A DNA stretch of 24,581 nucleotides from Nitrososphaeria archaeon (GCA_050011875.1 JBEKIG010000022.1:1-24581); one strand, 5' to 3'; shown: positions 5,291 through 21,992, counted from the first letter of the stretch. Made by a program: numbers and translations. The notes: generated by a model from the sequence alone, not told the origin.

Positions 5291-5779
5291 CTATGGTGCT
5301 ACGACTGATGCAGGATAGTCATTGCCAGCTGCTGAGTGAACGGTTATAGCGTAGGTATTTCCTGAAACTAGACCCATTCCTGCAGTAGTACTAAAAGTAA
5401 TTGTCATTATTACGCTTGCGCCTACTGGCAAGGATAATGGTGTTATCTCTGGATTAGCTATAGCAGTTGTAGTAGCACCAGTAGCTATTGTTGACCAACT
5501 AATGGTACCAGCTGGTCCAGTCCAAGCTGATAACGGTTCACCGTTTACGAATATAGCGACTATAGTGGCGGAAGATGAGCCCGCGTTCTTGAGTTGAAGA
5601 ACAACCGTCTGATCATTAGTCGAGTACGCGCTGACTACATCTATTTTTTCGTACTTTGTGAACGTCCCTACTAATCCTGCTGCCCAGAATGCTACCGCAA
5701 TCGCAATAGCGACCGCGACAGCGATCAAAATAACTGTTGCAATTACCGGACTAATACCTTTCCTCTTTTTGAGGTACAT
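5291..5779 (-). CDS. Archaeal type IV pilin, probable major pilin
   Basis: Class III signal peptide MYLKKRKG|ISPVIATVILIAVAVAIAIAVAFW; short beta-rich globular domain; own promoter and terminator. Confidence 0.92.
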   Translation of the reverse strand: MYLKKRKGISPVIATVILIAVAVAIAIAVAFWAAGLVGTFTKYEKIDVVSAYSTNDQTVVLQLKNAGSSSATIVAIFVNGEPLSAWTGPAGTISWSTIATGATTTAIANPEITPLSLPVGASVIMTITFSTTAGMGLVSGNTYAITVHSAAGNDYPASVVAP

Positions 5780-7237: not shown

Positions 7238-8098
7238 GTGAATGCTATTTATGAATATATTCTTGCGACTGTTGTCGTGATATTGTTAGTCGGATTGACA
7301 TTTGTCAACTTGACTTCGTCAACGTTTATAGGCATAGACATTCTTAATGGGGATCAGATAAATACGGTCGCGGGGGAAGTCTTTAACAAAATTATACTTA
7401 CACCAGGTGATCCAGTAGACTGGAATAGAACCAATGTCAATTCGCTCGGATTGGCAAAGGTTAATTCTACAGCATTTACCTTAGACAGAGATAAGGTTTT
7501 GTGCCTAAAGAATGGATCAATTAACGGAAATGAAGCTGTGAGGCTTCTGGGCTTAGAACATCTCTACAACTTTTCACTGAGTATATCTCCAGCATTAATT
7601 ATAAATGTCACCAAAATAAGCTATATTGCAGGCCGCCATAGCTTCAACGTTATGGTAAAGGATTTGAATGGTCTACCTGTTTCAACGGTTGTGGTCGAAG
7701 GATATTATGTGAACAATACTGACGATTGGAACACAGGTGATGCTATTGTGCGTAACAGTACTACGACTGGAATTAACGGGCTTGCAACTTTAAACTTCAC
7801 TTCTAAGAATCCCAAAGATGTTGTGCTCCTGATAACTGCAAAGTCGTACACTACAGTTACTCTGGCTGAATTTTATGTGCCAAATTCCTCATATACTTCA
7901 CCTAGTACATTGAATCCTCCGAAGGCTCTTACGGTTCAAGGTGACTATGTGGTTGAGGGCCAACCTATAATCGGTGCTTTCACCTTTCCTTCACCTGAAC
8001 CACAAGGAGTTTTGAAGACGGTCTCCTTAAGCCAATTTGTGAGTATTGACGATTACATGTATGAGGTGAATTTTCACTTTTGGAGCGTGTCACAATGA
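7238..8098 (+). CDS. Pilin-like protein without a basic leader (TPGxPxDW type)
   Basis: MNAIYEYILATVVVILLVG, IILTPGDPVDW...SLGLA and an Ig-like segment TTTGINGLATL; within the operon. Confidence 0.72.
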   Translation: MNAIYEYILATVVVILLVGLTFVNLTSSTFIGIDILNGDQINTVAGEVFNKIILTPGDPVDWNRTNVNSLGLAKVNSTAFTLDRDKVLCLKNGSINGNEAVRLLGLEHLYNFSLSISPALIINVTKISYIAGRHSFNVMVKDLNGLPVSTVVVEGYYVNNTDDWNTGDAIVRNSTTTGINGLATLNFTSKNPKDVVLLITAKSYTTVTLAEFYVPNSSYTSPSTLNPPKALTVQGDYVVEGQPIIGAFTFPSPEPQGVLKTVSLSQFVSIDDYMYEVNFHFWSVSQ

Positions 8099-9243
8099 CT
8101 CATTTCTTGTCGAGTAGGCATAGAAGGGCTCAGGCCAGGATAATAGAAGCGTTGCTGGCGGTTTTTATAATGACAGTCGCTATCCTTACAGCCACCTTCT
8201 ACAGCACGACAACATCTCAGGTTTCAGGAGAGAATCTTCAGCAGACAGCGAATAATCTCATCTACGCTCTTGATAACACTGAAGCCTTACAGGGCATCCT
8301 CAGTGCAGCGGGAAACTGGCAGGCGCAGCTTCAGCAACTCATACAGAGCCTTCTTCCAGCAGGAACATACTTTAACGCCAACGTTCTCCTGTCGAATGGG
8401 ACCATCCTTAACACGTCTCCGATAGGCAACATGGGGGGACTACAATTCGGTGTAACCACAAACGTCACATATGTGATCTCGATTTCACTCCCCAGCCCCT
8501 ACGCTAAACTGTCAATGCTTCCTACGAAGTTTAATGTCGTGCTCGTCAACGATATTTCAGGCAGTATGAAGTGGGTGGAACCAAATATCACGGAAACCCC
8601 TCCTGCTTCATGCAGCTATGATGGACGATGGATCTGTCCTTTGTACCCTGGACAGAATAGTAAGGAACAGGACGCCCGACTTGCGGCTAAGGGGTTTGTT
8701 AACGACTTAAATGTTAGCACAAATGGTGATCACATCGGAATTGTTGCGTTCGGTGACAGCGGCTATATCCGATCTCATCTTACTGGGAACAAGGCAACAG
8801 TCCTGAATACGATTTCCAACTTGACCGCTCAAGCTGAAGGTACTTACTTGTCAGATGGATTAGCTAAAGCGATCCAGGTCTATAATCATAATCCCGTTCG
8901 GCCAGAGAATCAGAGCCAGTGGGTGATGGTCCTTCTGACAGACGGTTATCCGACATATCCTGGTGATGGCAGTTCATATTCAGTGAGAGGTGCAAATGAT
9001 GCGTTGGGAAATGCTACGATACTCCACAATATGAACGTGACTATGTTCACGATCGGTTTGGGTGTTGAAATCGATCCAGGACTTCTCACCGCTATCGCAG
9101 GCAGTCCTTCCAACTATTTTTATGCGCCCACATCTGCGGACCTTCAAGGAATTTATCAGACGATCGCTAATAGATTGTCTATAGGCGTTGGACTCACATC
9201 TGAGACGGTCATTCTACAGATAACGCTAGCAACGAGTGGGTAG
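8095..9243 (+). CDS. Pilin-like protein carrying a von Willebrand factor A (vWA) domain
   Basis: Start ATG at 8095 overlaps the upstream TGA (ATGA). Signal RHRRA|QARIIEALLAVFIM. Complete MIDAS: DISGS, GTYLSDGL, LLTDG. Confidence 0.9.
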   Translation: MTHFLSSRHRRAQARIIEALLAVFIMTVAILTATFYSTTTSQVSGENLQQTANNLIYALDNTEALQGILSAAGNWQAQLQQLIQSLLPAGTYFNANVLLSNGTILNTSPIGNMGGLQFGVTTNVTYVISISLPSPYAKLSMLPTKFNVVLVNDISGSMKWVEPNITETPPASCSYDGRWICPLYPGQNSKEQDARLAAKGFVNDLNVSTNGDHIGIVAFGDSGYIRSHLTGNKATVLNTISNLTAQAEGTYLSDGLAKAIQVYNHNPVRPENQSQWVMVLLTDGYPTYPGDGSSYSVRGANDALGNATILHNMNVTMFTIGLGVEIDPGLLTAIAGSPSNYFYAPTSADLQGIYQTIANRLSIGVGLTSETVILQITLATSG

Positions 9244-9245
9244 TT

Positions 9246-12200
9246 ATGAAGGGCAGAAAGGCTAGAAAGGGGCAGTTTCTCATTCTGACCGCTGTGGTGC
9301 TAGTATTGGCCCTAATACTAATCTCCACCATCTTGAATACAGCTATACTATCTAGAACAGAGTATCTGGAGCCAAGCTTTAGGGAGGTAACTCAGAAGAT
9401 CAGTACAGATTTTCCGGATGCTCTGGGTGGAGCTCTCTCAAACGCTACAATGACCTATAAGGCTACAGGAAATATGACAGAGGCGCTATTGAATGCTGAA
9501 ATCTCTCTGGCAAACTGGAGGGAGAATATCTTGAATGAATACGTGGGCTTCGGTGTCAGATTGAGTGTTTCCGATCCTGTCATCGAGCTTAACTGGGACA
9601 CTCCTGATGAAGGAAACTCTTCTATTACCGCTAATGTTGGACTAAACCTGACCACCCTAGGATTTTCGGGTTGGAACGATACAGAGACAGTTGAAGCCTC
9701 CGCCCAAGTTCAAAGGTCACCTGATTCTGTCATAGTTACACCCAACGAACTCACATTCAACATGACCTTTGTTAAAGAGGATGGTAGTCCTGTAACAAGT
9801 TTGACAAACGAAACGCTTGAAATCAACGCCCACTATGTAGGTGCCCAGCAAGTCTACCAGACCCTCAACATGTCGACTGCTACGTTCAGATACCTCGGTA
9901 ACGGTCTATATAACATAACTGCTGGAATTGATAACACGATAGATGCTTTCCAACTAGCTGCATACGATGACCGTGGTGTATTGGTCTGCCTGACGTCGAG
10001 CTTGGCTGTTCCAGTTAACGAAGCTATCGTAAAGTCCATCAAACTTACCACAGGTCCTAGTAGCACAAAGGCGGATGTGACAGTTGTTTCATCCCTCAAT
10101 AAGCCCATTCAAGGTGCCACTGTATATGGGCATTGGGCGGGCCCAAATGTCACCAGCACAGATCAAGTGCCAGAAATAATGCAAACCAACGCCAATGGCA
10201 TAGCAGAGTTCACAGCTTCAACTTCTTCTTTATTCAAACAGAATGTGACAAAAGGTGTCACAGAAAATTCCAATGTGGGTGTAATCAGTTTTAATATAGA
10301 TGATGTTTTGTTTGTACCTGTAATAGGAGTAATAGGTCCTGCTACTGCCAATAATATCAATGGGTGGACGGGAGTGAACAATGCCAAGATTGATAATGAA
10401 CAACCAATAGTTCTTTGTGCATCTGCCTCTACGAGTGGATCGCAAGCAACATTCAGCGGTTACAATTTTAACATGATACCATCTAATATGACGATCACGA
10501 ATGTATGGCTTAGACTTGATTCTTGGACTCCAGGGACTCTAGATAACAACTATATTTCAGTTGCAATCAGCAACGATAGTGGTACTAAGTTTCCATGGTC
10601 TGTGAATGTGTATCCACCCACCTACCCTGCGACTCCAGAGCCAACGCCGTTAGGAAACTACCCGCTCTGGATTAAGCTGAATAGCACTTCACCATTGGGT
10701 TGGAATGTCACACAACTTCAGAACACTAATTTTTACTTTAAGCTCACTAAGATTACAGTCGGCTCCTCCGCTACTGTATACTTGGACTTCATTCCAATCG
10801 TTGTACTGTATCAGCCGAATTATGTATATGAGCCTCTGAGAAGCGTAACACAAGCTACGGCGGTCAAGAGGGGCGCTTCACTTTTTGTCGGCACATGGTC
10901 GAATGCAGCAAATGCATTACAAAACAATACCAATTCCTATGCATATGCAACCACAGCCAGTTCCACATTGATACTGCGCCCTAATGCCGCTGGGACATAT
11001 CAGCAGTGGGCCACCTTCGGCAGCGGAAGTAGCCATTTCGGTAGTACCTCAGACCAGAGCGACCTTACTGGTGTCCAAATAACAGGTAACACATCGGCTA
11101 AAGAGACTGAAAATCTTCAGAATTCAACTCAGACGGCAACGATAAATAACGTCACTATATATATGAGAGCGAAGGAGTCTGGAACAACATTAGTATATAA
11201 TAATGTAACTTTTGATGCTGCATCTTCTGCAACGACATCTGCTATTGCATTCAGTACAGGAACTACAGACTATGGAACTGGTACTGGAGAAACAGCTTCT
11301 GCAATCACTATTAATGCAGGTGATTTTGTCCTTGCAGACGTCGCTATCGTTGGTACTTCTGTAACTGTTTCTAGTATTACTCTTGGCTATGGGAACTCTA
11401 TGAGTAGTCTAACTAGTAATACTGGTGACGGAATAGGAAATTATCTTTATTACTATGTTGCTACAACTAGTTTGGGCAGTGTAACTCCAAGACTCAGATT
11501 ATCATCACTTGGTGCTTATCATGCTTGGACTGTAGTAGATTACACTGGAGTATCAACATCTTCACCATACTGGGCAAATACTGGCACGAGTGGCGGTACC
11601 TCAATAAGTTCTGGAAGTACAGAATCTGCAGCTACTATGGCTGCAAAAAGCACAGGAAGATTAGTAGTATCTGCTTTTACTGGTATTAGTGCATCTAATT
11701 CAGCTACAGCTATTACTATTGCTGCTGCAAATAGTGAAAATCAAAGAGAAGTAGTAAAACAAAGTGGAAGTAGTTCTAATCAAGCTGTAAGTGCAGAACT
11801 TGAAGATTATGCTTCTGATGCTAGCAGAATCAATAAAGCAACGTATACTGATTCAGGAGTTACTATGGATTACAATACGATAACTGTGACACTTTTACCA
11901 GCTAGGTCAATGTCTTGGACTCATACAGTTGGAACGGGTAGTAACCGTCTACTTCTTGTAAGTATTGGAACATACAACATCTCGGGGACACCTGCAACCG
12001 TCTCAAGCATTAAGTATGGTGGGGTAGCGTTAACCCTAGTTGCGAGCGACGTCTACTCAACAAACCCGCAGGTTGGAAGTTATCTATATAGTTTAACAAA
12101 TCCCGCATCTGGCTCCAATACTATCAATGTAACATTCTCAGCTTCGACACTTGCGGTCGGCGGTTCAGTATCATATTTTAATGTTAACCAAACCAACCCA

Positions 12201-13421
12201 ATACAATCAACCGGAATAAACCAAAATTCTGGAACAACCCAATCGGTGACTGTAACTCCAACAGGCACATACAGCAAGATTTTCTATGCCAGCATGATGT
12301 CCTACCAAACAGCGTCTTATACGGTAACAGGCTCTGGACAAACCAATAGATGGACACAAACCAGTTCCAACCTTAAAGGTCGTGAGAGTGAAAAAAATGT
12401 CACGGGCGGAACTTCACAAACGATGTCGTGGACAACCAGCAGTACTGTAAGCTGGGTGGCAATCGGCGCAATTATTGTGCCAACAAATACGAACCCTGTG
12501 GAACAAGCGGTTATTCTTTGGCGAACTCATAGCACGAATTATCAAAGCTCTGCCTTTACTATTTCAAGAACAGCCTTTACGAATTATTCCAAGACACTGA
12601 CAATAAACAATAATACAGGACAACCTTGGACGTGGGCTGAAGTAAACGCTTTAGAGATAGGCGCAATGGCGACACAACTTGGAGCAACGGAAACTATTCA
12701 AGTCAGCGAATTCTGGATCGTAGTTAATTACATGAGTGCCCCGACAGAAAGATATTACGGATTCGGCTTTAACATTCCATCAGAATCGATCATAGACTAT
12801 GTTGATATTCAGTCAGACCTCTGGCTTCAGTCCAGTGGAAATGACTATGTCAATATGTCAATAAGCAGAAATTCAGGAGTTAGCTGGCTGCCAGCCCAAC
12901 CATTTCAAGTAAACCCTCTCACAATAAATGAAAAAACATATCACACAAATGCCACAGGATGGTACAAATGGACGCCTGCTGACCTGAACGGCAACGGAAT
13001 CCAAGTGAATATCACAAAAGTGACCGTCGGCGCAAGTGAACAGGTGAACCTCGACTACCTCGCGTTGTATGTTGTATACCACAACATGCCAACCCTTTCA
13101 CCGCCTTTCATGCACGTGGACAATATTACACTCTCGCAGCAGGGAACCTCTCCGAAAAAGCTCCAAGCAAGTGTTAAGATAGTCGATGCAAGACTTGATC
13201 CTGTGTTAAATGCAAAAGTATACGTAACTATAACTGATACAAACGGTTCTAGTTGGGTACGTAATGCGAACACGGCTTCAAATGGTATAGTAACCTTTTC
13301 TCTTCCAGGAATACAGTCAGGCCACTCGTACACCCTTACAGTGACCAATGTCATAATGACAGACTGGGTCTACGACATCCAGATAAACTATGTATCTTCG
13401 GAATCGTATAAGGTAACGTAA
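9246..13421 (+). CDS. Giant pilin-anchored multidomain adhesin (1391 aa)
   Basis: Class III signal KARKG|QFLILTAVVLVLALILIS; Ser/Thr/Asn-rich beta domains; internal repeats; no C-terminal membrane anchor. Confidence 0.88.
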   Translation: MKGRKARKGQFLILTAVVLVLALILISTILNTAILSRTEYLEPSFREVTQKISTDFPDALGGALSNATMTYKATGNMTEALLNAEISLANWRENILNEYVGFGVRLSVSDPVIELNWDTPDEGNSSITANVGLNLTTLGFSGWNDTETVEASAQVQRSPDSVIVTPNELTFNMTFVKEDGSPVTSLTNETLEINAHYVGAQQVYQTLNMSTATFRYLGNGLYNITAGIDNTIDAFQLAAYDDRGVLVCLTSSLAVPVNEAIVKSIKLTTGPSSTKADVTVVSSLNKPIQGATVYGHWAGPNVTSTDQVPEIMQTNANGIAEFTASTSSLFKQNVTKGVTENSNVGVISFNIDDVLFVPVIGVIGPATANNINGWTGVNNAKIDNEQPIVLCASASTSGSQATFSGYNFNMIPSNMTITNVWLRLDSWTPGTLDNNYISVAISNDSGTKFPWSVNVYPPTYPATPEPTPLGNYPLWIKLNSTSPLGWNVTQLQNTNFYFKLTKITVGSSATVYLDFIPIVVLYQPNYVYEPLRSVTQATAVKRGASLFVGTWSNAANALQNNTNSYAYATTASSTLILRPNAAGTYQQWATFGSGSSHFGSTSDQSDLTGVQITGNTSAKETENLQNSTQTATINNVTIYMRAKESGTTLVYNNVTFDAASSATTSAIAFSTGTTDYGTGTGETASAITINAGDFVLADVAIVGTSVTVSSITLGYGNSMSSLTSNTGDGIGNYLYYYVATTSLGSVTPRLRLSSLGAYHAWTVVDYTGVSTSSPYWANTGTSGGTSISSGSTESAATMAAKSTGRLVVSAFTGISASNSATAITIAAANSENQREVVKQSGSSSNQAVSAELEDYASDASRINKATYTDSGVTMDYNTITVTLLPARSMSWTHTVGTGSNRLLLVSIGTYNISGTPATVSSIKYGGVALTLVASDVYSTNPQVGSYLYSLTNPASGSNTINVTFSASTLAVGGSVSYFNVNQTNPIQSTGINQNSGTTQSVTVTPTGTYSKIFYASMMSYQTASYTVTGSGQTNRWTQTSSNLKGRESEKNVTGGTSQTMSWTTSSTVSWVAIGAIIVPTNTNPVEQAVILWRTHSTNYQSSAFTISRTAFTNYSKTLTINNNTGQPWTWAEVNALEIGAMATQLGATETIQVSEFWIVVNYMSAPTERYYGFGFNIPSESIIDYVDIQSDLWLQSSGNDYVNMSISRNSGVSWLPAQPFQVNPLTINEKTYHTNATGWYKWTPADLNGNGIQVNITKVTVGASEQVNLDYLALYVVYHNMPTLSPPFMHVDNITLSQQGTSPKKLQASVKIVDARLDPVLNAKVYVTITDTNGSSWVRNANTASNGIVTFSLPGIQSGHSYTLTVTNVIMTDWVYDIQINYVSSESYKVT

Positions 13422-13684: not shown

Positions 13685-14383
13685 ATGAACAAGAAGCACG
13701 GTGTTTTATGTCTAGCTTTATTCTTAATGCTTCCCTTGATGAATTTTGCAATGGTACAATCTTTGAACGGAACAAGTTATCCGAGCAAAATGAATGAGAC
13801 AACGTCTTTAAGCGCCTTCTCTTCCTACATCAATTCTTCCTACATCGATATTTTAAGTGAACAGTCTTCTGTTTCAATGCCCGTCAACACATCAATATCA
13901 AACAATACATCTTTGTATTCGATAAACGTTTTTTCTAACATAAACGCATTAATAAATATTTCACCGAGCGCTCCAAACAACGTGTACAGAGAGAATACTA
14001 CGGTCACGCTAACTGCACCATCTAGTGTACCCCTTGACGGCTTCTTAGGCGCTCTTGGCGCAAAGTACGATTTCAAAGATTGGTCCTGCTCTTGCGGATC
14101 GACCTATACCTCAAATCCGTTAACTTTCACTATAATGTCAGGAGACATGCAGAACCTCGTATTTAATGCGAACTACGTGCCTGACTACACCATTGTCTAC
14201 GTCATCGTAGTCACAATTGTCATCGTTGTTATAATATTAGCCCTTCTACTGTTAAAAGAAGCAAAGTTAGAAAATAAAAAGGGGCACAAAGCAGAAACAG
14301 CCAAAATAATGGATAAAAGTGAAAACGTTAAGGATTTTCCTGCAGAAGAAAAGAAGGATGACAGTGTAAAAGAAGGTAAGTAG
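13685..14383 (+). CDS. Short membrane-anchored surface protein (InlB B-repeat-like domain); short paralog of 16917-19634
   Basis: Signal peptide, VTLTAP...GFLGALGAKYDFKDW, C-terminal TM helix and charged tail EEKKDD, all shared with the 905-aa protein. Confidence 0.8.
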   Translation: MNKKHGVLCLALFLMLPLMNFAMVQSLNGTSYPSKMNETTSLSAFSSYINSSYIDILSEQSSVSMPVNTSISNNTSLYSINVFSNINALINISPSAPNNVYRENTTVTLTAPSSVPLDGFLGALGAKYDFKDWSCSCGSTYTSNPLTFTIMSGDMQNLVFNANYVPDYTIVYVIVVTIVIVVIILALLLLKEAKLENKKGHKAETAKIMDKSENVKDFPAEEKKDDSVKEGK

Positions 14384-16916: not shown

Positions 16917-19634
16917 TTGGATAAAAAAGCGGTCGTTTGTATTATCTTATTTCTTATGTTGGCACCGATGCTTGGAGCATCCTATGCATCATCGTCCGTT
17001 CAACTCAGTCTTCTAATCACTCCGGCTTTAGCTTCTGTCCCTTCTGATGGCCTACAACATCCAGCTTTCTACGTTTCGGTTGTGGATAGCTCCGGCAACC
17101 CTAGAGCCCTACAAAAAAATATTAACGTAACTACTTCTAGTTCAGATAATAGTATATTGAAAGTCCCCAGTAACATAACAATGGGGATTGGAAGCTACTA
17201 CACTATCGTGTATGGTTCGAGCACCATTTTGGTAGGGAAATCCGTTCAGGTTTCAGTTTCGTCGTCTGGTTTTCAATCTGGCACGGCCACAATTTCAGTG
17301 GCACCTCCGGCAGGCACTCCGATATCCCTGAAGATCACCCTGCTTCCAAACACGGTAGCACCTTTGGTGGGATCAGAGTCAGATGTTGTCGTCACAATTG
17401 TTGACGCATATAACCAGCCTGCTAAAGCTAGAACTAATATTAATGTAACTTTGTCTTCATCTAATCTTCAGATAGCAGATCTAATCCCTAGAACAATTAC
17501 AGTTTCAAAGGGGAATTTTTCTGCTATGGCTAAGATCAAAACTACAGGCTTTGTTGGAAGTACTTCAATTACAGCCTCCTCATCCAACCTTCAGTCTGAC
17601 ACTCAAACTTTTACGGTCTCCGGTCCTAAACCGCAACAAATTGATATTTGGTCCCCTACTGATATTTGTACAAATGAATCAGTCTATATCCCTGTTATGG
17701 TAACGGACCAAAATCTTGAACCTGCAAAACTACCTTTCAAACTTAACATCAGCCTTTATTCTACGAATACATCCATAATTTCTGTTCAAAGCCGTGTTGT
17801 CATAGGTATTGAACAATGGTATGCGTTGGCGACAATAACTTCTTCGAACATTACGGGGTCAGCTACTATTTATGCTTCAGCAGAAAATATATCTTCTACT
17901 AACATCGTTGTAAACGTTGTCCGTGCGGTCGGACCTCCAAAGTTTAAAAACAAGAGTGTGACGCTCAAGATCTACTCCTTGGCAAATTATTTTCCAGCTG
18001 ACGGAATAAACTATACCGGTCTTATGGTGCAATTAGTCAATGCAAGTGGGTATCCAACCTGGTCCAACGTCTCAAAGGTCATTAACCTATTTTCAACGAA
18101 CAATGCGATTCTTGCTGTACCCGCGACAGCAACGATTTTAGCAAATCAGTCGATAGTCTACATCCCTGTTATCCCCGTGGAGCCAGGCAGTGTTCAAGTA
18201 AGCGTAGTTGCCTCAGGCTTTATCGGGACTCAATGCCCATGTTCTGTATATGAACCAATACCAAGCTCTATGCAGATAGTGGTTCCACCAGTCCCTGCAG
18301 GGGGGGAAGTTACCGGGTGCCTTTATATTTCAGGCGGGGGTGGGCCAGCTCCTGTACAACAGAATACTGTAGTGACTTTATCTTCTTCTAACACAAAAGT
18401 AGCTGAAGTCGATGCTACATCGACGCTTCTAAATAAAAACTACACCGCCGAATTTAAAGTTACAGGAGTAACTCCGGGCTCTTTCTCTTTATCTGCATCG
18501 GGTCCAGGTATACCATCAGGCAGCATGCAAGTACAGATTTCTCAATTAAGGCCCTCAAACTTCTTTGTATCAACTATTAAACCCCTAGTTGGAATGCAAT
18601 TTCCGATTATTACGCAGATCATTTCTTCTTCAGGTCCTCCGGCAGTACTCGACGAACCCGTTCAAATAGAAATTTCTTCAAGCAATACGACCGCTGTCAG
18701 CCTGCCCACTACTGTTCAAATTCAAGCCGAAAAAAGTGAAACAATCGTATACGGCACAACTAACTCATCTACCAGCATTACATCGGTGACGATTGCATCG
18801 GTAGGCTTCACTTCTTCGACTTTGCAACTGCAGGCCATATCCTATAAAGGCAGTTTGGTATTAGTAAGTAATAAAACATCATCAACCGTCAATTCAGCTG
18901 TTACAATTCAAGCCATAGTTACATTGGGTGGTAATCCAGTTAGTGGAGTAAAAGTCTTTTGGAAGGGGCAGGGACTACTAGCTAATAATAGTATTACGGG
19001 CTCCTTTGGCAACTGTAGTAACCTTCTTACTTTGAAGCATGGTCAAAACGATGTCGGAGCATATGCTGTGATTCCAGGCGTAGGTTATGTTAACAATGTT
19101 ACGGAGGTTCAAGGGTTAAACGAATATGTATTGGAAACTTCTTCGAACGTAAATGTGAACGTTAACGTGGCGCCGAGCGCACTCGAATACAAGGAAGGTT
19201 TATCGGTGACTTTAACTGCGCCAAATACTGTAGCTATGAATGGATTAATCGGTCTTCTGGGCGGAAAATATGATTTCAATAAATGGACCGGTTTTATAAA
19301 CTCTCAGCAAAATCCTATGAATATAGTCTTTTTAGGAGGCAGTACAACGTTGACTGTTAGAGCTATTTACGTAGAAGATCTTACATTTGTATATGTCTGG
19401 CTTGCAGTTATAATTCTAATTGTAGCCGTCATCGGTTTCTTCTTTTTTAGAAGGTGGTATATGTTAAGACCGCCTAAAGAAGAAAAGGAAACAGAAGCAT
19501 CAGAAACATTAGAAGAGACTGTAACGGAAACAAAAACAGAAGGGGGCAAAGAAAAAGAGACCGGAGAAAGCAAGGACGTAAAGGAGTCCTCTACTGAAGA
19601 AAAGAAGGATGACAACGCAAAAGGAAATAGCTAA
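16917..19634 (+). CDS. Large membrane-anchored surface glycoprotein with tandem Ig-like domains
   Basis: Signal peptide; six roughly 100-aa repeats with a V.L.SSN..V..VP..VTI pattern; Big-1-like domain; InlB B-repeat-like domain; TM helix and acidic tail. Confidence 0.85.
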   Translation: MDKKAVVCIILFLMLAPMLGASYASSSVQLSLLITPALASVPSDGLQHPAFYVSVVDSSGNPRALQKNINVTTSSSDNSILKVPSNITMGIGSYYTIVYGSSTILVGKSVQVSVSSSGFQSGTATISVAPPAGTPISLKITLLPNTVAPLVGSESDVVVTIVDAYNQPAKARTNINVTLSSSNLQIADLIPRTITVSKGNFSAMAKIKTTGFVGSTSITASSSNLQSDTQTFTVSGPKPQQIDIWSPTDICTNESVYIPVMVTDQNLEPAKLPFKLNISLYSTNTSIISVQSRVVIGIEQWYALATITSSNITGSATIYASAENISSTNIVVNVVRAVGPPKFKNKSVTLKIYSLANYFPADGINYTGLMVQLVNASGYPTWSNVSKVINLFSTNNAILAVPATATILANQSIVYIPVIPVEPGSVQVSVVASGFIGTQCPCSVYEPIPSSMQIVVPPVPAGGEVTGCLYISGGGGPAPVQQNTVVTLSSSNTKVAEVDATSTLLNKNYTAEFKVTGVTPGSFSLSASGPGIPSGSMQVQISQLRPSNFFVSTIKPLVGMQFPIITQIISSSGPPAVLDEPVQIEISSSNTTAVSLPTTVQIQAEKSETIVYGTTNSSTSITSVTIASVGFTSSTLQLQAISYKGSLVLVSNKTSSTVNSAVTIQAIVTLGGNPVSGVKVFWKGQGLLANNSITGSFGNCSNLLTLKHGQNDVGAYAVIPGVGYVNNVTEVQGLNEYVLETSSNVNVNVNVAPSALEYKEGLSVTLTAPNTVAMNGLIGLLGGKYDFNKWTGFINSQQNPMNIVFLGGSTTLTVRAIYVEDLTFVYVWLAVIILIVAVIGFFFFRRWYMLRPPKEEKETEASETLEETVTETKTEGGKEKETGESKDVKESSTEEKKDDNAKGNS

Positions 19635-19996: not shown

Positions 19997-21538
19997 TCAA
20001 TTTTGTTCACTCTCCGGGGAGGCTTTACTTTTACGCAATAGGGTGACTGCCAAAAGCGCTACGATCGCCAGCAGAGGAATCCAAAGCAGCTGAAGATACA
20101 GGTTCAAGCTATCCTGAATAACGATTCCTCCAACAGGTGAAGCTGTCGTCTCAGTCGTAGTTGCAGTAGGCGTCGTGTACAGGTAAGCTTCGAAAGTTGC
20201 AGTTATGGACTGGTTAGCTTGAACATCGCTAAAGACAACTGTTTGACCAGCAGGCGAAGAAACCGTCACAGGACTGCCATCAACCGTTATGCTCGCAATG
20301 TAGTAACCTACACTAGACGTGCCTGCATTAGGCGTAACAGAGAAACTCAGGCTACCACCCTCAGCAACCGTCGAATTACCAGGACTAATAGTGCCATCGC
20401 TAGACTGAGTAACCGTAATAGTGTACGTGTAAGCCGCGAAAGCATAAACATTGCCGTCATATGAGCCGACGTAAACGACGCCTCCGACAACAGCAGGAGA
20501 AGACCACACCCAGCCTCCAGTAGTGAAGTTCCAGATTTCAGCACCATTAGAAGCGTTCAAAGCATAAACATTGCCGTCAAATGAGCCGACATAAACGATG
20601 CCTCCGGCAACGGCAGGAGAAGAAAACACCCAGTTTCCAGTAGTGAAGTTCCAGATCATAACACCGCTAGAAGTGTTCAAAGCATAAACCATGTTGTTAA
20701 GTGAGCCGACATAAACGATACCTCCAGCAACAGCAGGAGAAGAATACACATCTCTTCCAGTAGGGAAGCTCCAGATTTCATCACCATTAGAAGCGTTCAA
20801 AGCATAAACATTACCGTCGTATGAGCCGACATAAACGACGCCCCCAGCAACAGCAGGAGAAGAATACACAGCGCCTCCAGTAGTGAAGTTCCAAAGTTTA
20901 GCACCGCTAGAAGCGTTCAAAGCGTAAGTATTTTTGTCCCATGAGCCGACATATACAACGCCCCCAGCAACAGCGGGAGAAGAAAACACATAGCTTCCAG
21001 TAGGGAAGCTCCAGATCGAAGCACCGCTAGAAGCGTTCAAAGCGTAAACATAGTCATCAAGTGAGCCGACGTAAACAGCGCCTCCAGCAACAGCAGGAGA
21101 AGACCACACCCAGCCTCCAGTAGTGAAGCTCCAAAGCTTAACACCGCTAGAAGCGTTCAAAGCATAAACATTGTCGTCATCTGAGCCGACATAAACGACA
21201 CCTCCAACAACAGCAGGAGAAGATCGCACACCACCTCCAGTAGTGAAGCTCCAAAGCTTAACACCACTAGAAGCGTTCAAAGCATAAACATTACCGTCCC
21301 ATGAGCCGACGTAAACGACGCCTCCAACAACAGCAGGAGAAGATTCCACAGAGTTTCCAGTAGTGAAGTTCCAAAGTTGAACACCACTAGAAGGGCTTGA
21401 GGTAGAGTATCCAGAATGCGCAGCATCATGACGAAACATCGTCCAATCGTCGCTAGCCCCAACAGCAGAAGGCAGCAAAGACAAACACAGCAAAACAGTC
21501 AACGACACAAGAAAGAACCTTGCAAACTTCACTTTCAT
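19997..21538 (-). CDS. Membrane-anchored PQQ-type/BamB-like 8-blade beta-propeller protein with an Ig-like stalk
   Basis: Signal peptide; WTMFRHDAAHSG; 8 x 40-aa SSPAVxGGVVYVGSxDxNVYALNAS repeats; C-terminal TM. ATG at 21538 follows GGAGA; the ORF track start is 21559. Confidence 0.93.
   Translation of the reverse strand: MKVKFARFFLVSLTVLLCLSLLPSAVGASDDWTMFRHDAAHSGYSTSSPSSGVQLWNFTTGNSVESSPAVVGGVVYVGSWDGNVYALNASSGVKLWSFTTGGGVRSSPAVVGGVVYVGSDDDNVYALNASSGVKLWSFTTGGWVWSSPAVAGGAVYVGSLDDYVYALNASSGASIWSFPTGSYVFSSPAVAGGVVYVGSWDKNTYALNASSGAKLWNFTTGGAVYSSPAVAGGVVYVGSYDGNVYALNASNGDEIWSFPTGRDVYSSPAVAGGIVYVGSLNNMVYALNTSSGVMIWNFTTGNWVFSSPAVAGGIVYVGSFDGNVYALNASNGAEIWNFTTGGWVWSSPAVVGGVVYVGSYDGNVYAFAAYTYTITVTQSSDGTISPGNSTVAEGGSLSFSVTPNAGTSSVGYYIASITVDGSPVTVSSPAGQTVVFSDVQANQSITATFEAYLYTTPTATTTETTASPVGGIVIQDSLNLYLQLLWIPLLAIVALLAVTLLRKSKASPESEQN
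20440..21392. repeat. Eight near-identical 120-bp intragenic tandem repeats
   Basis: CCAGTAGKGAAG recurs at 20517, 20637, 20757, 20877, 20997, 21117, 21237 and 21357. Confidence 0.95.
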
Positions 21539-21992
21539 ACTCTTTATTTCTCCAACCAACTAATATTTGATTATGTTTATAAGTTTTATTCCCATATACT
21601 TGATTTCACGCTTGCTAAACATTTTTTGGATGTAGCTCTACTTATGTTATAATTATGATGATAGGATGCGGTGTCCGTGATTATAAATCCTACGGTAATA
21701 ATCTATTCATAAAAAATAAGGGGGAAATTACCTCTCCAAATTATTATTTATTTAGTGATTTTTTAACTTGAGATAAGAGAGGAAGAGCTAGGATCACAAA
21801 TAAGATTAGTTAGCTGTTTCTATAGTTTCTAAGTCGACGCTGATAGCTTATGCTCTTAGTGAGATAGCCTCCTTTAAAGGTATAAAATCTGTTAAGACAC
21901 ATATCTATCGATTTCTGATAGTGGTCCTCCTATATAAAGGAGCCCTTATCCATCAATTAAATAGAGGTTTCTTAACTTCTATTTTTCGATGC

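Follow-up and report, generated by a model that had tools for sequence, protein, structure and literature searches.

An open reading frame (ORF) of 1391 residues in a Nitrososphaeria archaeon (GCA_050011875.1, contig JBEKIG010000022.1) raises the question of whether the domains of a surface protein need to follow one another along the chain or may be inserted into one another several levels deep. The window analysed here is the entire 24.6-kb contig (24,581 nucleotides), part of a genome bin of 2.64 Mb with 97% completeness and 4.8% contamination, and its DNA was present in sequencing runs that are peat metagenomes. An earlier note, made from the sequence alone, had read the protein as an adhesin of the order A[B]A-B[C[D[E]D]C]B-A, where square brackets enclose the guest of a split host domain, and had proposed that it grows by serial insertion of domains into a distal loop, giving a stalk with the newest domain at its tip. 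The gene was found to be one uninterrupted ORF in the ORF list and the translation (Table 1), and residue numbers (aa) were converted into window positions as nt = 9246 + 3(aa-1). We confirmed the full order of this ORF, its A[B]A part being weakly supported, and B[C[D[E]D]C]B holds at the boundaries proposed in the earlier note.

Sequence evidence for the nested domains

As comparison of the protein with itself by blastp (E<=10) gave no internal repeat, the repeats on which the nesting was proposed are remote, and Smith-Waterman alignments with shuffled controls and profile searches were needed to trace them. For the inner nest, profiles were built from relatives in which each supposedly split domain is unbroken, and these were then run on the nested protein. 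The profile of domain C (158 positions) came from 28 proteins in which both halves are adjacent, with 0-12 residues between them, and its two complementary parts matched the N-side half with an independent E-value (iE) of 8.7e-34 and the C-side half with an iE of 2.2e-36. The profile of domain D (223 positions, from 93 unbroken D segments) matched the D remainder with positions 12-223 at aa 868-1080 (iE 2.2e-61). Unbroken homologues of D open with a short strand of the form F/Y-D-A-x-S-S about 10 residues before the motif S-W-x-H-T; the same two motifs are 220 residues apart in the window protein, and the N-termini of the unbroken homologues correspond to the D first strand of the window protein joined to its D remainder. 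A weight matrix of the first 18 positions of D found its top match of the whole protein at aa 652 (10.8 bits, with the next best at 2.1 bits, a mean of -22.8 and a standard deviation of 8.9), and the stretch directly before the D remainder scored -11.7 on it. The innermost domain E matched positions 2-225 of the 232 positions of a profile of stand-alone E at aa 666-889, and stand-alone E was found directly behind a signal peptide in the protein P0068. Profile matches thus showed every nested level, B, C, D and E, to exist unbroken elsewhere as well.

The outer shell was traced in the same manner. The B profile (132 positions) was derived from six unbroken B domains of the unrelated proteins P0016, P0065 and P0098, and it matched the first copy, B1, as a whole (positions 2-132 of 132 at aa 373-522, iE 3e-20). 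The C-side piece of the second copy, B2, was matched with an iE of 2.4e-26 and its N-side piece with an iE of 0.031, which is weak alone. Smith-Waterman alignment of B1 with the C-side piece of B2 gave a z of 15.3, a score reached by none of 300 shuffles. The final domain A2, a macroglobulin/immunoglobulin-like (MG/Ig-like) beta-sandwich, matched positions 1-110 of the A profile (iE 1e-56). For the first copy, A1, the N-side part was matched by positions 18-73 of the A2 profile at aa 268-325 (iE 3.7e-4) and aligned with A2 at a z of 3.4 (3 of 300 shuffles reached the score), and its first 70 residues had an AlphaFold predicted local distance difference test (pLDDT) value of ~80. The best match outside A2 to a block of 10 columns from the A2 tail was at aa 522 (z 3.9); by Smith-Waterman alignment with shuffles the resemblance of this putative C-side part of A1 was non-significant alone. 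The residues concerned (aa 524-544) were invariant or nearly so in orthologues (81-100% identity), with a pLDDT of ~45. As regards the proposal that B1 interrupts A1, both B1 and A2 are intact as claimed, and the interruption of A1 itself is weakly supported by these matches.

Table 1. Features of the nested gene and of the genes around it in the window
Feature	Residues (aa)	Position (nt)	Strand	Basis or remark
Whole nested gene		9246..13421	+	Pilin-like N-terminus, then nested beta-sandwich modules
N-terminal region	1-260	9246..10025	+	Short basic leader and hydrophobic helix, then N-terminal domain
A1 N-side part	261-358	10026..10319	+	MG/Ig-like beta-sandwich, first copy
B1, intact jelly roll in A1		10362..10811	+	B profile; like carbohydrate-binding modules (CBM) 32/35
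A1 putative C-side part	524-544	10815..10877	+	10-column A2 tail block; weak
B2 N-side piece	549-573	10890..10964	+	B profile positions 1-24
C N-side half	573-649	10962..11192	+	C profile positions 2-77
D first strand	652-666	11199..11243	+	D N-terminal weight matrix
E innermost domain, D-like fold	667-886	11244..11903	+	E profile
D remainder	887-1080	11904..12485	+	D profile; phage minor-tail-protein-like
C C-side half	1085-1163	12498..12734	+	C profile positions ~78-156
B2 C-side piece	1165-1278	12738..13079	+	B profile positions 23-132
A2, intact MG/Ig-like beta-sandwich	1283-1391	13092..13418	+	A profile
Candidate major pilin, 162 aa, divergent		5291..5779	-	Pilin_N E 0.0022, below cut-off
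Four upstream genes with N-terminal hydrophobic helices		5926..9243	+	Putative minor/modular pilins
Helix-plus-VWA protein, 387 aa, directly upstream of nested gene		8080-9243	+	VWA E 3.5e-18
PilC/TadC-type platform protein (T2SSF), 613 aa		14904..16745	-	PF00482 E 1.1e-20

Structure prediction of the split halves

Pairing of the split halves was assessed by complementation docking with ESMFold2, in which E was excised, chain 1 (aa 545-666) held the N-side pieces of B2, C and D (B2n, Cn and Dn) and chain 2 (aa 887-1279) held the C-side pieces (Dc, Cc and B2c). The interface score (interaction prediction score from aligned errors, ipSAE) was 0.79, 0.79 and 0.81 versus 0.00 for the best of three controls, with 436-442 modelled contacts. 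In these runs the pLDDT was 86 for the partner and 90-92 for the others, and at least 95% of the contacts were in agreement. In the calibration of the docking mark, 58 of 80 solved complexes passed it, as did 2 of 110 mismatched pairs; these counts are rough here, an own alignment having been used. It is unlikely that the predictor simply reproduced a specific known complex, because the protein is without a solved relative (0 matches in the PDB by sequence at E<=1), though jelly-roll folds are common.

The predicted interface takes in all three split levels: chain 1 contributes B2n, all of Cn and Dn, and chain 2 contributes its entire Cc together with parts of Dc and the final strand of B2c. 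Residues 546-561 and 564-579 of the B2n region lay inside the predicted interface with the C-side chain, and residues 647-665 lay within that with Dc. The contacts of lowest error were those between Cn and Cc. Among the low-error pairs, the last strand of C (~aa 1153-1161) runs antiparallel to the last strand of Cn (~aa 634-642) and touches the first strand of C (aa 576-577), which places the termini of C at one end of the domain and its insertion point (aa 647/1085) at the other. By the pair list, from which this geometry is read, the two lie at opposite ends of a strand pair of ~9 residues.

AlphaFold was run on aa 261-1391 (1131 residues) with the scaffold alignment and gave a mean pLDDT of 61 and a predicted template modelling score (pTM) of 0.41. 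The two halves of C reached a pLDDT of 91-98 (N-side) and 94-98 (C-side), values above 90 that an isolated half-sandwich of C would not be expected to reach; B1 had 65-85 and A2 75-91. Alignment of the split domains by MAFFT was rejected, as rows carrying D only or E only were wrongly placed on C, E rows were placed on D, and the D first strand was placed on the end of E. A deep-alignment AlphaFold model of D[E]D was avoided because this misplacement would bias it towards a tandem model. Complementary profile matches, unbroken homologues of B, C, D and E and controlled docking together bear out the nested order that had been proposed for B2 and its guests, with split halves that pair in structure prediction.

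Orthologues and the content of the C loop

An exhaustive phmmer search with aa 261-1391 returned 2860 proteins at E<=1e-3. The working set comprised 154 proteins, namely the best 150 of these 2860 and the proteins P0001 (the window protein), P0003, P0004 and P0006 from a word-index search, and it was annotated with five profiles under a strict rule for split domains. The closest relatives were found in metagenome-assembled genomes (MAGs) of Nitrososphaeria. One of them (P0002), from another source, is 66% identical over the full length and has the same architecture as the window protein. In three others (P0003, P0004 from locus L002 and P0005 from locus L003) the scaffold is kept up to ~aa 656 and from ~aa 1084, and a single domain of ~210 residues, named X, stands where the window protein has D[E]D. 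P0001 and P0002 were the only members of the working set with D[E]D. Comparison of these orthologues shows the content of the C loop to be replaced between them, D[E]D in some and X in others, and such variation of the innermost content agrees with the earlier note. Identity to P0002 was lowest in E (49%) and B1 (55%) and amounted to 75-80% in Cn, Dc and Cc, by which measure the two innermost domains are shown to diverge faster.

Within B2c and A2, two or more frameshifts interrupt the orthologue at L003 (8001-11492); its frame shifts near the end of an ORF of 1006 residues and reverts later, which may be an assembly error or mark a pseudogene. In a soil-metagenome run (X4), a relative 90-99% alike covers ~9246-10129 and 12022-13419 and not the middle, and in a single low-depth contig the similarity ends at 12022, within D, with unlike sequence on its upstream side. 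A strain with other C-loop content may be present in this run, although one loose end is too thin as evidence to call a different cassette. Another run (X3) held five small identical pieces only.

Spread of the modules and other nesting orders

At least 27 of the 154 proteins carry one or more split domains under the strict rule, which misses the window protein, P0020, P0055 and P0082, though their splits are visible in the annotation table. Unbroken full-length matches were counted 42 times for C, 113 for D, 19 for B, 7 for E and 10 for X. The domain C was split in 21 proteins, every time at profile positions 74-87, so that the profile alignments show a single insertion hot spot in C. The guests of C range from ~136 to 744 residues and are X in eight proteins and B in three (P0016, P0075 and P0023), the remainder being unassigned. 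The unit C[X]C occurs in the unrelated proteins P0008, P0013, P0017, P0029 and P0087, and B[C]B in P0010, at a B site other than that of the window protein. Further orders are C[B]C (P0016 and P0075), C[B...B]C (P0023), C[B[X]B]C (P0020), D[D]D (P0021) and D[X]D (P0096 and P0100), and D is split by an unassigned guest in P0006. Guests of D in other proteins enter at profile positions ~82 or 168, unlike at the D site of the window protein. Among the 154 proteins annotated, the window protein would be the deepest example of nesting.

The modules were also compared with one another by hhalign. D and E are related (probability 95.6%, E 1.1e-8), E and X gave 71%, and D and X gave a weak 22%; no relation was found of B to C (probability 2.7%), nor of A to the other modules. 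C was also found in bacterial MAGs of several phyla.

Resemblance of the modules to known folds and to viral proteins

None of B, C and D/E/X matched a family in Pfam or NCBIfam, and the only match of the nested protein there was a sub-threshold one of its N-terminal region to DUF7382 (E 0.0066 in Pfam, below the cut-off); a Pfam search of ten homologues likewise gave nothing relevant. B1 resembled CBM32/35/36 and discoidin domains with VIA-align Z of 9-10.7 and a root-mean-square deviation of 2.8-4.2 A, over 116-135 residues of the model range ~100-262 in which the pLDDT of B1 is only 65-85. It is like them in its jelly-roll fold and differs in the lack of a sequence-family match, as no CBM model of Pfam or NCBIfam matches P0001 or the B-rich P0065 and P0098, and a shared fold does not imply a shared function. 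A2 resembled MG4 of complement C5, a macroglobulin-type beta-sandwich (Z 9.3-9.4, model range 1024-1131). As B1 and A2 took up every place in the VIA results of the large model, these cover the two folds rather than C. Template modelling (TM) scores were very low for the reelin repeats and GH2/neuropilin jelly rolls that Foldseek found in the PDB with the large model, and these matches were set aside as usable only in the sense of 'jelly-roll-like'.

For D, the phage family phrog_553 'minor tail protein' matched P0154 (8e-17), P0145 (3.9e-11) and aa 820-1081 of P0001 (3.4e-8), a label that is a family annotation rather than a tested function. A model of the unbroken D homologue P0154 (pLDDT 90.8) found 85 viral models in BFVD at E<=1e-3 with query-normalised TM scores (TMq) of up to 0.78, many of them annotated as minor tail proteins of mycobacteriophages or Gordonia phages; the mycobacteriophage minor tail proteins had a TMq of 0.62-0.78. 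Against the PDB, Foldseek gave no match to this model at E<=1e-3 (best E 1.6e-3), and VIA-align gave a best Z of 7.0 over half of the domain (TNF/C1q-like, head of a phage receptor-binding protein), which is not decisive. D is thus like the phage proteins by sequence and predicted fold, with E and X as its remote relatives; the annotation in phages is that of a tail, whereas here D belongs to a pilus-locus protein and is split by a guest.

C matched phrog_6368, a family of unknown function, and the nearest ESM-Atlas clusters were viral for both C (0.96-0.97) and B (0.91-0.93). Of 44 candidate stretches examined in IMG/VR contigs, 13 encode an unbroken C, and some of these adjoin terminase, portal or head-tail adaptor genes. 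One IMG/VR viral contig (L024, 5851-6498) encodes a C-domain protein of 215 residues between the large terminase and portal genes, and in another (L021, 5878-8520) a protein of 880 residues that begins with a C domain is encoded close to a head-tail adaptor gene. Among 50,697 deposited phages, tblastn found nothing that matched an unbroken C protein.

The pilus locus around the gene

The nested gene is the last of a co-directional block, following four smaller genes for proteins of 277, 157 (with a weak DUF7266 match), 286 and 387 residues, the last of which carries a VWA domain and looks like a 'modular pilin'. Also part of the locus are a T2SSF platform gene and the gene of a candidate major pilin, whose N-terminus shows a short basic leader and a hydrophobic helix of typical form. 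The gene order upstream of the orthologue in L003 is identical and the T2SSF homologue is there in the same position; the VWA gene lies upstream in L002 too, and both loci, from MAGs labelled Nitrososphaeria, are syntenic with the window.

The translated N-terminus of the nested protein (aa 1-260) has a basic stretch followed by a hydrophobic helix of ~25 residues, which, with the cleavage motif read by eye, may be a class III (pilin-type) signal. Residues 4-251 were matched by P0009, P0035, P0043 and P0054, in all four of which an unbroken D follows, and the N-terminal ~250 residues are common to other proteins with the same basic-plus-hydrophobic leader. The translation ends in A2, and no sorting motif or hydrophobic/charged tail was read at the C-terminus. 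Base composition showed no clear anomaly over the insert, and DNA direct repeats at the junctions were absent except for two pairs of 16 nt at chance level. Among the runs listed as holding the window DNA, none was an RNA run.

Interpretation and alternative explanations

In our judgement the gene product probably belongs to an archaeal type IV pilus system as a very large surface protein of modular, pilin-like build, with a recursively nested beta-sandwich ectodomain and a swappable cassette. An MG/Ig-like A would host a CBM-like B, a second B hosts C, C hosts D and D hosts E, followed by a final A, and each host domain would fold from the two sequence pieces that flank its guest. We propose that such folding works because the guests have adjacent termini and the hosts a permissive loop. 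The protein may be displayed on or at the tip of the pilus as a giant modular minor pilin or pilus-associated adhesin, and its putative binding surfaces would be the modules deepest inside (E, and for the first nest B1), with glycans or other polymers of the cell surface as the probable ligands. Lineages could change specificity by exchanging the C-loop cassette, as tailed phages exchange receptor-binding modules, and the double covalent attachment of each guest may keep the assembly compact and robust.

Several results weigh against this reading. The A[B]A level is weakly supported by the A1 matches, and alignment of B1 with the N-side piece of B2 alone was not significant (z 0.7, reached by 71 of 300 shuffles). 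The AlphaFold pLDDT was below 45 for Dc and the second half of E, where the alignment is shallow; as AlphaFold was poor there, the evidence for the D[E]D level consists of the sequence profiles and the ESMFold2 docking model. Cassette exchange is suggested by presence and absence in five orthologues. All Pfam pilin-related matches of the nested protein and its neighbours fell below their cut-offs, and no gene for a pilus ATPase or peptidase was found in the window. Lastly, other module-bearing ORFs numbered 0 at E<=1e-4 among 5909 stop-to-stop frames of at least 80 residues in the 2.64-Mb genome, which thus holds no second copy of any module that could point to a donor.

It is very improbable that the domains are linear, like beads on a string, and that the split halves reflect chance similarity or short strand swaps. 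The empty self-comparison, the non-significance of B2n and of the C-side part of A1 taken alone, and phmmer matches of D that run into the end of E would agree with a linear chain, but both halves of C match complementary parts of one 158-position profile at iE below 1e-33 and exceed a pLDDT of 90, the D first-strand matrix picks aa 652 over the stretch before Dc, and docking gave 0.79 against 0.00 in the controls. Scarcely credible is a metagenome assembly chimera or frameshift artefact that has joined unrelated genes. The window does come from a MAG and the orthologue in L003 carries its frameshifts, but the gene is a single uninterrupted ORF and in Logan contigs of two runs one contig covers the whole of it with 0 differences and two more bridge every junction without joints. 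These two runs may both represent the source sample; the architecture is confirmed independently by P0002, which is of another source and shares it at 66% identity.

Strict serial growth, in which one domain at a time enters the previous distal loop so that depth reflects age and a straight telescoping stalk results, appears unlikely. It is favoured by orthologues that differ in their innermost content, by the restriction of D[E]D to P0001 and P0002 among the 154 proteins and by the low-error pairs that place the termini and the insertion point of C at opposite ends of a strand pair. Against it, the recurrence of C[X]C in five proteins and of B[C]B in P0010 means that whole sub-nests may move together, and the nesting order is variable (C[B]C, C[B[X]B]C, D[D]D and D[X]D). 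Moreover, E enters after the first short strand of D, and C after 24 residues of B2, so that a linear stalk is not obvious. The distal loop imagined in the earlier note thus fits C, and a telescoping shape would be less evident at the D/E and B/C sites, which are close to the host N-terminus in sequence; growth with the newest domain at the tip is a mere possibility, as composite C[X]C units are present in unrelated proteins and pre-nested cassettes may move as units. A real nest in a protein that is not a pilus component, but an anchored glycan-binding protein of the cell surface or a virus-captured module set near pilus genes, is improbable. Such a protein would be in keeping with the lack of a Pfam pilin model above cut-off, of ATPase and peptidase genes in the window, and with the viral relatives of all modules; it is opposed by the order of the four pilin-like genes and the VWA gene, conserved in two other MAGs, by the N-terminal 250 residues common to proteins with the same leader, and by the candidate major pilin and platform gene that flank the operon.

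Beyond the pilus-linked protein that we favour, a wider and more doubtful possibility is that B, C and D/E/X form an undescribed 'plug-in' toolkit of beta-sandwiches, used by tailed viruses and by surface proteins of uncultured archaea and bacteria, in which any module may host any other and nesting, in place of tandem repetition, is the normal mode of growth. Each module would then have adjacent termini and one or two permissive loops, and cells, perhaps also viruses, might retarget nested adhesins by swapping the innermost cassette at the fixed hot spot in C. Resistance to force or proteases at the pilus tip may in that case be what has favoured guests attached at both ends.

Relation to known systems and significance

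Modular type IV pilins, in which a pilin module is fused to a VWA or lectin module, are exemplified by PilB and PilC of Streptococcus sanguinis. In these, a pilin-type leader and helix open the chain and an adhesive module comes next, a layout comparable to that of the helix-plus-VWA protein encoded upstream of the nested gene; they differ in being bacterial with a single appended module, whereas here the putative pilin is archaeal and carries ~1130 nested residues. Pneumococcal RrgA has domains that enclose a VWA-like domain in nested fashion, and the order in the integrin beta subunit is PSI[hybrid[beta-I]]. Both place an adhesive domain at the end of a nest of host domains, at two to three levels, but with other folds and in sortase pili or eukaryotic receptors, whereas here there are four levels and a swappable cassette in an archaeon. 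The window protein does not belong with sortase-pilus tips of the RrgA type, as no sorting signal was found in it and the organism is archaeal.

Recursive nesting as such is known: according to a survey in Protein Sci 2026 (PMC13114784), insertions occur in about a fifth of multidomain proteins, and recursive insertion reaches up to six levels in the Si3 region of the cyanobacterial RNA polymerase beta' subunit. The term 'unusual' that the earlier note had given to the mechanism was accordingly too strong. Si3 is alike in its multi-level nesting of small beta-rich host and guest modules with adjacent termini, and differs in having one module type and six levels in a cytoplasmic enzyme (PMC13114784), whereas the window protein has at least four unrelated extracellular module types, a changeable order and a variable innermost domain. 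Large adhesin-like proteins encoded in archaeal type IV filament loci have been proposed to serve adhesion in the available part of PMC13705601 (PLoS Genet 2026); they are alike as large surface proteins with Ig-like or galactose-binding folds in archaeal pilus loci, and differ in being tandem Ig folds and PilY-like proteins, with no nesting in that part of the text. In the published literature searched we found no description of these modules or of a nested archaeal pilus adhesin, with the reservation that the supplementary figures of PMC13705601 may show adhesin architectures. What appears to be new is the combination, in one pilus-locus protein, of four levels, unrelated and uncharacterised extracellular modules shared with viruses, a changeable order and a swappable cassette.

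As the organism is uncultured, the significance is for now structural and evolutionary rather than physiological. The protein would be a useful case for the folding of discontinuous domains and for the design of loop-grafted binders, and defining the modules, with 2860 related proteins, would give an annotation to many surface and phage proteins now called 'hypothetical'. Should specificity be set by the C-loop cassette, archaea of soil and peat would have a route to retarget their pili, and archaeal adhesins would also be tied to the pool of modules found in host-recognition proteins of phages.

Two further proteins encoded on either side of the platform gene, of 905 residues (16917-19634, plus strand) and 232 residues (13685-14383, plus strand), have signal-peptide-like N-termini and showed neither a Pfam match nor any of the B/C/D/E/X modules. 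Farther downstream, and without evident link to the nest, lie genes for a secreted beta-propeller protein of the pyrroloquinoline quinone (PQQ) type (19997-21559, minus strand) and for a double-PAS sensor protein that runs off the end of the contig (23071-24579, plus strand).

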